Virus record (IMG/VR): IMGVR_UViG_2563366802_000013
Span: 1 to 44,878 of that record
From: a virus
Taxonomy: Duplodnaviria; Heunggongvirae; Uroviricota; Caudoviricetes
DNA: 44,878 nucleotides
Strand: one strand, 5' to 3'
Under the pieces are notes generated by a model. That model searched no databases and was not told the origin of the DNA. It saw nothing but the letters and a program-made list of their open reading frames with translations. Position numbers and translations under genes: made by a program. Below are positions 36,819 to 37,548 of this stretch, piece by piece; positions within the stretch are counted from its first letter, which is position 1, and each line of letters begins with the position of its first letter.

Positions 36819-37508
36819 ATGAAATTAGAACTAATAGCATTATCTTTACTGGCTTTAACTACGAACGCAATCGGCTCTAGCACCCTGAGCTGCGATTACG
36901 CTAAGTCGGACATCAGTAATGGAGCTAATGCTCCAATGATTCCTGGCGGAAAAGGCACTGTCGAATTTGATGGAAAATCCTTTAAAGCCACACGTCCAAA
37001 TGGTGGTGTGATCATTTCACCAATAATCAGTGAACAAAAAAATGGAATGCTTTTTCTTGACGACAAGACAAAAGTGTTCGCGGCAAGCCTTTCTAAAACT
37101 GATTTCGCTATCTCTGACCGAATTGCTCGAATTACTGAGCAATGGGCCAACTGCATTGATGTTAGTCCATCGCCGAACAATTCAGATAACGACAAACCGG
37201 CAACTGCATGGAAATATAGGTCTCTCACGAAGCAGGAGATAAATGCTGTTGAGGCAGCAGTGAAAGACCAATTGAAGGATCCAGAAAGTGCCAGATTCAA
37301 GCACTCTAAGTTTGTGAGCAACGGGAAAGGCGCTTACTGCGGCCTGGTTAATTCCAAAAACTCATATGGCGGCTATGCTGGAAACACTCCTTTCATGGTC
37401 ATGCTTATCAACAATGGCAAACCTCACGCTGGATTTATTGGTATGGGCGGAGATGATGCCGAGACCCTGTCAACGCTATCCGTCTGCAAAGACAGTGGTT
37501 ATTTCTAA
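36819..37508 (+). CDS. Secreted/periplasmic protein of unknown function (immunity-region moron, rex position)
   Basis: 229 aa; signal peptide MKLELIALSLLALTTNAIG; strong SD (AGGGAAGGG); AT-rich relative to cI; followed by a strong intrinsic terminator. Confidence 0.7.
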   Translation: MKLELIALSLLALTTNAIGSSTLSCDYAKSDISNGANAPMIPGGKGTVEFDGKSFKATRPNGGVIISPIISEQKNGMLFLDDKTKVFAASLSKTDFAISDRIARITEQWANCIDVSPSPNNSDNDKPATAWKYRSLTKQEINAVEAAVKDQLKDPESARFKHSKFVSNGKGAYCGLVNSKNSYGGYAGNTPFMVMLINNGKPHAGFIGMGGDDAETLSTLSVCKDSGYF

Positions 37509-37526
37509 ACCCCACCTTGATTGAAA

Positions 37527-37548
37527 GCCCCGCATTGCGGGGTTTTTT
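37527..37548 (+). terminator. Intrinsic terminator ending the cI-moron transcript
   Basis: GCCCCGC-att-GCGGGG hairpin followed by T6. Confidence 0.65.

Follow-up and report, generated by a model that had tools for sequence, protein, structure and literature searches.

The cI locus and its downstream gene

The window analysed here is the whole 44,878-nt stretch of the IMG/VR virus record IMGVR_UViG_2563366802_000013 (Caudoviricetes). Its immunity region is organised around a cI-type repressor gene, whose product matches PHROG 4 'transcriptional repressor' (E 3e-55), and a divergent Cro/YdaS-like gene (Table 1). The OR-type block contains three operator palindromes (36026-36039, 36051-36064 and 36075-36088). 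The -10 element of a PRM-like promoter ends 6 nt 5' of the cI ATG, so that the cI transcript would be leaderless, and reading of the sequence found no Shine-Dalgarno motif before that ATG.

The open reading frame that concerns us encodes 229 aa and starts with ATG, after a 14-nt gap from the cI stop codon at 36804 and on the same strand as cI, as had been proposed from the sequence alone. Its start reads AAGAGGGAAGGG-ATG, and the strong ribosome-binding site and the terminator of its own that had been claimed for it are both present, the former within the gap and the latter as a hairpin that folds at -17.3 kcal/mol (z -3.5; equalled by 1 of 200 shuffles) and was not picked up by a simple terminator scan. 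On the + strand, a consensus promoter scan of 36100-36819 turned up nothing promoter-like. From this operon geometry we infer that in lysogens the maintenance promoter drives the ORF together with cI, and that the ORF would depend on the cI promoters; placed behind a cI that is probably leaderless, the downstream gene with its strong ribosome-binding site should be well translated.

Table 1. Positions of the immunity-region features and of the second C-domain gene within the window.
Feature	Coordinates	Strand	Basis
Terminator of second C-domain gene	12613..12632	-	8-bp stem, 5 G-C pairs, T-run (terminator scan)
Second C-domain member, 124-aa lipoprotein, lipobox LAGC|K	12648..13022	-	A2-profile hmmsearch 1.4e-17
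Divergent Cro/YdaS-like gene	35762..35989	-	domain match
OR-type operator block, three ATAACC-N-GTTAT palindromes	36026..36088	.	direct repeat D2, inverted repeats I1, I3
PRM-like promoter TTTACT-17-TATATT (putative)	36065..36093	+	consensus scan, 9/12 matches
cI-type repressor gene, 234 aa	36100..36804	+	HTH_3 1e-10, Peptidase_S24 5e-17
Ribosome-binding site AAGAGGGAAGG	36806..36816	+	sequence read, inside cI-ORF gap
229-aa ORF	36819..37508	+	
Signal peptide, aa 1-19, MKLELIALSLLALTTNAIG|S (predicted)	36819..36875	+	sequence read and homologue alignment
N-domain, aa 20-114	36876..37160	+	all-beta, 9 strands, bounded by conserved C25 and C112
Disordered linker, aa 115-131, rich in P/S/N/D	37161..37211	+	pLDDT <50 at residues 118-126
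C-domain, aa 132-229 and stop codon	37212..37508	+	helix, five-strand sheet, C-terminal helix
Intrinsic terminator, end of cI-ORF unit	37524..37548	+	hairpin GCCCCGC-ATT-GCGGGGT then T-run
OL/PL region, operator palindromes	37598..37684	+	inverted repeats I1, I3, I5, I6
PL-like promoter TTGCCA-17-TATCTT	37649-37677	+	promoter scan

Beyond the terminator, an inverted copy of the OR-type block occupies 37636-37678, and the DNA from 37677 onward resembles the phi80 OL/N region. The gene thus stands after cI and upstream of OL/PL, and its assignment to the rex position holds. In lambda, rexA and rexB lie downstream of cI, co-oriented with it, and are followed by a terminator before OL/PL; since the ORF has the same place in the genome and the same regulatory setting, again with a terminator ahead of OL/PL, its product is expected to be made in lysogens.

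The AT-rich composition remarked on in the sequence-only reading is true but modest, as the ORF has 44.2% G+C against 52.6% for the window and falls in the lowest 6% of 690-bp windows. The ORF is a real gene under purifying selection, with dN/dS of 0.04-0.10 against seven homologous loci. The identical 229-aa protein is found on 485 Enterobacteriaceae contigs from several genera, always under the name "hypothetical". When the locus was compared with phage records by megablast, the flanks were matched (the 5' end of cI and the phi80-like OL/N region) but not the gene itself.

A two-domain protein with predicted export

The N-terminus consists of M-K, a hydrophobic core (LIALSLLAL) and then A-I-G|S, and homologues keep the same layout with equivalent small-x-small sites; pLDDT is about 50 across this stretch. 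The signal peptide seen by eye therefore stands as a prediction, resting on the n-h-c pattern and on the alignment, and Sec export to the periplasm with cleavage by signal peptidase I is predicted. A lipoprotein reading was rejected, there being no lipobox. In the AF2 structural model (mean pLDDT 82), where the linker alone is disordered, the N-domain is confidently modelled as an all-beta, barrel-like unit of about 95 aa and the C-domain, likewise of about 95 aa, as an alpha+beta cystatin/NTF2-like unit (pLDDT 79-92 for this block). Every N-domain sequence shown retains C25 and C112; in the C-domain, C174 and C223 do not vary across an alignment of 105 sequences (A2). The pairs C25/C112 and C174/C223 are consistent with periplasmic disulfides, and the protein would be exported and then oxidised in the periplasm.

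Searches of Pfam, NCBIfam and PADLOC returned nothing for the protein (PADLOC 0 families at E <1). Its N-half belongs to PHROG families 2578 (E 9e-30) and 14768 (E 3e-28) and its C-half to phrog_2320 (E 5e-21); all of these matches are labelled 'unknown function', with no exclusion family and no characterised homologue among them, in agreement with the sequence-only reading, which could assign no family. Neither domain matches a solved structure: no PDB sequence came below E 0.3 in profile searches. Foldseek against BFVD matched only uncharacterised or "lipoprotein" phage proteins. As a whole, phrog_2578 corresponds to a 233-aa architecture with another C-domain, and by these family matches the 229-aa protein is a chimera of a phrog_2578 N-half and a phrog_2320 domain.

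Exchangeable cargo after cI

The expectation that the slot would hold variable cargo was confirmed across 80 IMG/VR loci with related cI genes. The same gene occupies it in 15 of them, and in 4 there is a variant that joins this N-domain to another C-domain; elsewhere it is empty or holds a 131-aa lipoprotein, secreted proteins of 98 or 99 aa, a 384-aa HSDR_N nuclease-like protein, or a TerB, DUF6932 or P63C protein. Even loci whose cI is 91-100% identical carry this gene, the domain-swapped variant, the 131-aa lipoprotein, the 99-aa secreted protein, or nothing. The relative P0013 shows 94% identity in the N-half and another C-domain right after ...EQWANC, and judged from the alignments the linker is the junction where relatives exchange C-domains.

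The gene had also been called a moron. Its presence or absence at the junction, its own terminator and its deviating G+C agree with that term, but strictly used the word requires a promoter belonging to the gene itself, and none was seen in 36100-36819; the ORF is hence better described as operon cargo like rexAB.

A phage-borne C-domain family

A C-domain profile search retrieved 5,865 clusters of small secreted proteins or lipoproteins, in which the motif LKDPxSAxF ... YCGxVNxKNSYGGYxG..PF ... C follows an export signal. The 229-aa protein scores E 6.5e-42 against the profile, its own version being LKDPESARF...YCGLVNSKNSYGGYAG...C, and the columns D154, C174, N181, G184, G188 and C223 are invariant in the A2 alignment. 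Every relative inspected begins with a signal peptide or a lipobox. A Pfam search of the 105 relatives found no shared family; one of them matched TcpS (E 2e-4), which we treat as unresolved noise because no other relative did so, even at E <1. In a second profile search, the best 120 matches bore only the names "hypothetical", "lipoprotein" or "secreted protein" and showed no Pfam fusions. Our literature searches on the C-domain family found no study of it. The C-domain is fused to PG_binding_1 in Paracoccus phage Pkon1 and to SPOR in Pseudomonas phage AUS531phi, and these fusions to peptidoglycan-binding modules would place it at the wall.

All 12 gene neighbourhoods examined in full were prophage or phage (ES18, Klebsiella phage 5 LV-2017, Fraca, LMessi, AUS531phi, Pkon1, P0062, P0075, P0067, P0268, P0273 and P0235), and ES18 gp20, annotated as a 'possible moron', is itself phrog_2320. 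A housekeeping periplasmic protein, the kind of homologue that the sequence-only reading had named as telling against its proposal, was rejected, every inspected neighbourhood being phage.

A separate sample of 51 dereplicated C-domain clusters from IMG/VR revealed a linkage to tape-measure genes. In 15 of these the C-domain gene directly adjoins a giant ORF, and 13 of the 14 giant-ORF neighbours tested are Pfam tape-measure proteins; adding L134, counted on length since its 1,138-aa neighbour equals a TMP_3 gene in length, brings the tape-measure neighbours to 14/51 (27%), for which a chance model gives a p of about 3e-9. The tape-measure gene may be on either side of the C-domain gene and on either strand, and 35 of the 51 clusters occur in other contexts. 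Full-length homologues of the 229-aa protein are also found directly upstream of a tape-measure gene.

The phage studied here carries a second member of the family, located between a DUF6246 tail gene and the tape-measure gene (TMP_3) and related both to the 229-aa protein (blastp 4e-10) and to phrog_2320 (1e-31). This second copy is a self-contained moron of the classical kind, with a promoter-like site and a terminator that immediately precedes the start codon of the tape-measure gene. The idea that the tape-measure-adjacent relatives serve as tail assembly chaperones was rejected, since they have export signals and terminators of their own and DUF6246 fills the chaperone position.

Proposed function

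We suggest, as a best guess to which we would give a probability of about 0.4, that the 229-aa protein is a superinfection-exclusion factor acting at the periplasmic stage. Its C-domain would bind a conserved element of the envelope, be it peptidoglycan or a part of the incoming siphovirus tail that crosses it (tape measure or tail tip), and such binding would prevent formation of the DNA conduit, while the exchangeable partner domain might change localisation or specificity. In favour of exclusion we count the operon geometry, the purifying selection, the confident model and the universal export signals of the C-domain family, together with the phage and tape-measure linkage, the homologues in the slot of HK97 gp15, the wall-module fusions, the presence of two copies and the nuclease-like and other accessory cargo of the slot after cI. 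The tape-measure linkage may reflect only a recombination hot spot for morons. A motif that stays invariant through the Alpha-, Beta- and Gammaproteobacteria, together with very strong purifying selection, is more readily explained by a conserved host ligand than by a phage target that evolves fast.

Extended to the whole family, the proposal becomes tentative, and we hold it to be somewhat unlikely in this broad form. The C-domain would then define a very large class of tape-measure-linked proteins, periplasmic or lipid-anchored, which stop genome delivery at the peptidoglycan or periplasm stage by binding the wall, the emerging tape measure or the tail tip; the 229-aa protein, an exchangeable barrel domain joined to a C-domain, would be its modular, immunity-operon version, and the paralogue its lipoprotein version in the tail operon.

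One or both domains might instead be stoichiometric inhibitors of lysozymes, of peptidoglycan hydrolases (including type VI effectors) or of proteases, making the protein a lysogenic-conversion factor; we regard this as unlikely. The enzymes concerned would be foreign ones met in hosts or in competition, and the benefit would go to the lysogen without being directed specifically against phages. The protein gave neither a match to the Pfam MliC profile nor a close structural match to MliC/PliC barrels, and for the cystatin superfamily neither a profile match nor the QxVxG hairpin motif.

It is also conceivable, if quite improbable, that the protein serves the phage's own lytic cycle, masking or modifying the envelope of the infected cell against loss of progeny on debris, or tuning wall integrity before lysis. 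T5 Llp and Cor are reportedly precedents for such protection of progeny. Many C-domain members do sit inside late tail operons, including between tail genes K and I, or beside lysis genes, one between Mor and a holin (L028) and another upstream of an amidase gene (L026). On this account the copy after cI would owe its expression chiefly to the establishment promoter or to read-through. Against this reading, the ORF is wired to cI, its terminator insulates it from PL, the tail-operon copies have their own terminators and promoter-like sites, as is typical of prophage-expressed morons, and other members lie beside integrase or repressor genes.

We give still less credence to a reading that seems very unlikely to us, in which the N-domain is a lipid- or lipoprotein-binding barrel (LolA/lipocalin-like) and the protein, by remodelling lipoprotein traffic or the outer membrane, alters the cell surface, for example in its receptor display, permeability or vesiculation. 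That the ORF is a decaying or non-functional hitch-hiker, for which one could cite the functional annotation found nowhere, is next to unthinkable and already contradicted by the conservation data: an intact frame with signal peptide, ribosome-binding site and terminator, a dN/dS of 0.04-0.10, a confident fold and an identical protein on 485 contigs of several genera.

Implications

The immunity operons of prophages have proved to be a source of mechanisms for exclusion and defence, and most of the known examples act in the cytoplasm or the membranes. The ORF is a defined candidate, simple to clone, for a protein with a periplasmic site of action, and its C-domain is absent from Pfam, NCBIfam and PADLOC though present in thousands of protein clusters across the Proteobacteria. 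Should it block infection, one experiment would supply an annotation for much phage "dark matter" and would open the way to studying how siphovirus tails get across the wall and periplasm, which is still poorly understood. If host or competitor enzymes are inhibited instead, it would represent a new lysogenic-conversion family in the clinically important genera Enterobacter, Klebsiella and Citrobacter.

Comparison with known systems

The slot shared with lambda rexA-rexB does not extend to the products. Lambda Rex is made by two genes, for a cytoplasmic sensor (RexA) and a polytopic membrane protein (RexB), whereas here there is one soluble protein, predicted to be exported, with no match to RexA or RexB in PHROG, Pfam or PADLOC; a periplasmic product could not follow the Rex-type route of abortive membrane depolarisation as described. 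Any likeness to cystatin, PepSY and NTF2 folds or to PliC/MliC-type barrels is at the level common to many unrelated small barrels and alpha+beta rolls, and is accompanied by no profile match and no family motifs.

Ltp targets the tape measure. Together with Cor, T5 Llp and the mEp Lpp proteins, Ltp of phage TP-J34 is directed at the envelope and encoded in or near tail modules, as are C-domain relatives. Cor and Llp, however, are much smaller proteins that act by blocking a receptor of the outer membrane, and the 229-aa protein has no lipid anchor. As a possible relative we considered mEp021 Lpp, a tested exclusion lipoprotein of 72 aa, and rejected it, as it matches neither domain profile. 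Lipoproteins from the structural cluster of mEp phages have been shown experimentally to exclude phages (PMC11893012), and Ltp is presented as the prototype exclusion lipoprotein of streptococcal phages (PMC3952083).

HK97 gp15, whose gene lies just upstream of the tape-measure gene, is expressed from the prophage and blocks genome entry, with a dependence on the tail that the incoming phage carries (PMC3594210). The slot of this YebO-like moron, between the tail chaperone and tape-measure genes, is shared by the homologues and by the second copy described here; gp15 itself is a small inner-membrane protein, to which the proteins considered here have no homology; they differ from it in fold and are either lipoproteins or soluble proteins with an export signal.

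T4 Spackle (Sp) and P1 Sim carry a cleaved signal peptide, reside in the periplasm and stop superinfecting genomes, Spackle, an all-helical protein, by inhibiting the tail lysozyme gp5. Although neither has a sequence or PHROG relationship to the 229-aa protein, they are the nearest models for how it might work.

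The cI-ORF229 unit and its cargo slot

The 229-aa reading frame that begins 14 nt past the cI stop codon, ORF229, is the second cistron of the cI unit. The sequence-only reading had proposed here an AT-rich gene in the position of the lambda rex genes, with its own terminator, and each of these features is borne out, the AT-richness to a modest degree. ORF229 has a G+C content of 44.2% (window, 52.6%), within the lowest 6% of equal-sized windows. A hairpin with a T-run follows the gene; a consensus terminator scan did not pick it up, probably because flanking A/T runs lengthen the stem. 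The repressor (234 aa; HTH_3 and Peptidase_S24 domains) matches PHROG 4 "transcriptional repressor" (E 3e-55), and YdaT-like, O-like and DnaB genes come after the divergent Cro/YdaS-like gene on the minus strand. The candidate OR and OL blocks are mutual inverted copies (43 nt, 74% complementary). Because the terminator precedes the inverted operator block, and the DNA from 37677 onward is similar to the phi80 OL/N region, ORF229 sits in the lambda rex position, between cI and OL/PL.

Coordinates of the second C-domain copy, the cI-ORF229 locus and the domains of the ORF229 protein
Feature	Position	Strand	Remarks
Terminator of second copy	12613-12632		
C-domain lipoprotein, 124 aa	12648..13022	-	LAGC/K; phrog_2320 family
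Promoter-like site of second copy	13143-13115		
Cro/YdaS-like gene	35762..35989	-	divergent from cI
OR operator candidates	36026-36088		three 14-bp palindromes, ATAACC-N-GTTAT, between cro and cI
PRM-like promoter	36065-36093		TTTACT-17-TATATT; consensus scan
ORF229	36819..37508	+	229 aa
Terminator 3' of ORF229	37524-37548		GCCCCGC-ATT-GCGGGGT + T-run; fold -17.3 kcal/mol, z -3.5
OL operator candidates	37598-37684		copies related to the OR palindromes
Inverted copy of OR palindrome block	37636-37678		beyond the ORF229 terminator
N-domain	residues 21-114		all-beta, nine strands; AlphaFold2 model
Linker IDVSPSPNNSDNDKPATAW	residues 115-131		disordered; AlphaFold2 model
C-domain	residues 132-225		helix, five strands, helix; AlphaFold2 model

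The -10 element of the PRM-like promoter stops 6 nt short of the cI ATG, which has no Shine-Dalgarno sequence; the cI message is therefore probably leaderless, as in lambda. Directly 5' of ORF229 lies a strong ribosome-binding site, AAGAGGGAAGGG, and a promoter scan found no promoter-like site between the two genes. We infer that ORF229 is expressed in lysogens and that its product is periplasmic and oxidised.

Variable cargo had also been anticipated, and across 80 IMG/VR loci with cI relatives (45-100% identity) the contents of the slot, which starts 11-22 nt past the cI stop, do differ. ORF229 occupies it at 15 of the 80 loci and a 233-aa variant with a swapped domain at four. At three (L051, L058, L059), where cI is 91-95% identical, a 131-aa lipoprotein (lipobox LAGC, phrog_20460) replaces ORF229, 14 nt after the cI stop. 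About 16 loci (among them L074, L080-L088, L090, L091, L095, L096; cI 67% identical) carry, 11 nt after the stop, a secreted, cysteine-rich protein of 98 aa (four cysteines; phrog_21025), and one (L057, cI 93% identical) a related 99-aa secreted protein; by their predicted features these form another uncharacterised exported cargo family. Five loci (L065-L067, L071, L073) hold, 22 nt after the stop, a 384-aa protein with an N-terminal type I restriction HSDR_N domain (PD-(D/E)xK-like), possibly a single-gene nuclease defence. Elsewhere the slot holds a small membrane protein, a TerB, DUF6932 or P63C protein, or is empty. Proteins of predicted exported type are strikingly common in it.

A chimeric protein predicted to be exported

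ORF229 is a conserved two-domain gene. Its N-terminus, MKLELIALSLLALTTNAIG/S, reads as a predicted signal peptidase I signal peptide, without a lipobox, and the pattern is kept among homologues. An AlphaFold2 model from a 44-sequence alignment (mean pLDDT 82, pTM 0.44) has two confident domains separated by a disordered linker. C25 and C112 flank the first (N-domain), C174 and C223 the second (C-domain), and each pair would fit a disulfide formed in the periplasm. Fold comparisons came out generic. Matches of some 70 aligned residues have alpha+beta-roll folds (copper amine oxidase N-domains, VirB8/TraE, YpeB/PepSY, cystatins), and the best Foldseek matches in the PDB are LolA, LolB, RseB, lipocalins and fatty-acid-binding proteins, none below E 6e-3; viral models returned solely uncharacterised or "lipoprotein" phage proteins. 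Matches are allotted to domains by aligned length and the target's known fold, as the output is silent on the domain aligned.

The two domains are shuffling modules. Residues 17-117 match phrog_2578 and phrog_14768, and residues 126-201 phrog_2320 and several further PHROGs, all lacking an annotated function. About 20 of 91 sequence relatives are full-length (41-94% identity; Enterobacter, Citrobacter, Klebsiella/Raoultella, Leclercia and Cronobacter); many others have the N-half followed by a different C-terminal part of about 110 or 220 aa, and further ones are proteins of about 130 aa consisting of the C-domain alone. One relative (P0013) is 94% identical up to ...EQWANC and continues into another domain, so that the linker is a recombination junction; the alternative 233-aa architecture corresponds to phrog_2578 as a whole. 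The ORF229 protein is a chimera. Four secreted proteins of about 185-203 aa (P0101, P0102, P0110, P0120) bear the N-domain at their C-terminal end, behind a cysteine-rich motif, KNCKKGIPCGNSCI, and five C-domain proteins (P0108, P0117, P0143, P0144, P0187) have a different N-terminal motif, DDLLNCKWENGE...CE; both domains therefore pair with several partners.

An identical protein occurs on 485 contigs as "MULTISPECIES: hypothetical protein [Enterobacteriaceae]", and its cluster includes proteins of Enterobacter hormaechei, E. kobei, Citrobacter freundii, Salmonella and E. coli. Of the 5,426 E. coli genomes that are complete, just one has the locus, labelled hypothetical by RefSeq.

A large phage-borne family linked to the tape-measure gene

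Searched against 1.84 billion cluster representatives, the C-domain profile retrieved 5,865 proteins at E <1e-3 and 594 at E <1e-10, mostly of 115-150 aa and each starting with a signal peptide or lipobox. An alignment of 105 relatives has the motif LKDPxSAxF ... YCGxVNxKNSYGGYxG..PF ... C, with D154, C174, N181, G184, G188 and C223 (numbered as in the full-length protein) invariant. The members share no Pfam family, NCBIfam and PADLOC gave no match, and a sequence search for a solved structure found none; public names are solely "hypothetical protein", "lipoprotein" and "secreted protein". One aligned member matches Pfam TcpS at E 2e-4, the others not even at E <1; TcpS (toxin-coregulated pilus protein S) is a periplasmic protein whose role is not established. 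In Paracoccus phage Pkon1, p57 joins a signal peptide and PG_binding_1 to the C-domain, and a Pseudomonas phage AUS531phi protein has a lipobox, the C-domain and SPOR. These two fusions to wall-binding modules would have the C-domain act at peptidoglycan or close to it.

ORF229 has moved between two types of accessory slot in prophages. A 94% homologue (P0001) in Enterobacter prophages and a swapped-domain variant (P0025) in Enterobacter mori follow the same kind of cI, whereas a 65% homologue (Klebsiella/Raoultella) and a 43% homologue (Cronobacter) lie after DUF6246, just upstream of the tape-measure gene, as does an N-domain protein of 342 aa that is frequent in K. pneumoniae. The same slot is occupied by HK97 gp15, a DNA-entry blocker and the first described moron (PMC3594210).

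All 12 fully read C-domain gene neighbourhoods are phage or prophage. C-domain-only genes occupy the gp15 slot in Klebsiella phage 5 LV-2017, a Brenneria prophage and Salmonella phage ES18, where terminators flank the gene (gp20) and its annotation reads "possible moron". In AUS531phi and in E. coli phages Fraca and LMessi, tail genes K and I enclose the C-domain gene, and in Pkon1 it and the tape-measure gene stand back to back. Mu-like prophages carry C-domain genes within the operon of the repressor or at the repressor end. One neighbourhood has the gene between Mor and a holin gene, and others have it adjoining integrase genes.

An IMG/VR scan with the C-domain profile gave 80 loci in 51 clusters (60% identity). 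The C-domain gene directly adjoins an ORF of at least 600 aa in 15 clusters (10 just upstream on the same strand, 3 just downstream, 2 on the opposite strand), and 13 of the 14 large ORFs checked are Pfam tape-measure proteins. Tape-measure adjacency thus reaches 14/51 clusters (27%), including one locus (L134) counted by length because its 1,138-aa neighbour equals in length the TMP_3 gene beside the Cronobacter homologue. With random adjacency to one named gene among about 55, at least 14 of 51 would have a chance of about 3e-9, a figure that shows non-randomness and not function, since the null model contains no moron hot spots. At one locus, L153, a C-domain lipoprotein gene and the gene of a 1,961-aa tape-measure protein (1392-7274, minus strand), within which a Phage_lysozyme2 domain is embedded, stand back to back, a single case of a neighbouring tape measure bearing a wall-degrading module. 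Phage mEp021 gene 63 (L110, 37053-37469, minus strand; 138 aa, signal peptide) is unrelated to the family; lying on the opposite strand, with the tail chaperone gene on one side and the tape-measure gene on the other, it appears to be a further exported-type gene at that junction.

The window itself has a second C-domain gene, flanked by a DUF6246 tail gene and a TMP_3 tape-measure gene. Its product (LLDPGSAQF...VCGEINGKNGFGAYAGFHPF) matches the C-domain profile at E 1.4e-17, the ORF229 protein at 4e-10 (BLASTP) and phrog_2320 at 1e-31, and with its promoter-like site and terminator the gene is a self-contained cassette. This phage thus has two copies of the domain, each in a different accessory slot, and would use it both as a soluble form behind a barrel domain and as a lipid-anchored one.

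What the ORF229 product may do

We propose, at a probability of roughly 0.4 and by analogy, that the ORF229 product excludes superinfecting phages at the periplasmic stage, while the tail crosses wall and periplasm. Against this proposal, accessory genes are known to collect at the tape-measure junction, and a motif that is invariant in three proteobacterial classes suits a conserved host ligand no less well than a phage target.

Among the alternatives, inhibition of foreign wall- or protein-degrading enzymes is unlikely, if the best placed. That the protein serves the lytic cycle of the phage itself is somewhat less likely again. We consider it improbable that the barrel domain binds lipid or lipoprotein. 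A non-functional ORF is hardly credible, as ORF229 is a real gene under selection (dN/dS 0.04-0.10, dS 0.10-0.97, dN 0.004-0.10, over seven homologous loci at 80-98% nucleotide identity).

ORF229 offers a cheap and decisive experimental entry to a very large unannotated family. What is new here are protein families that are uncharacterised and missing from curated libraries, and the chimeric architecture that combines them; an accessory, envelope-directed gene in a temperate-phage immunity operon is of an already known kind. For periplasm-stage exclusion the analogues are HK97 gp15, T4 Spackle, P1 Sim and Ltp.
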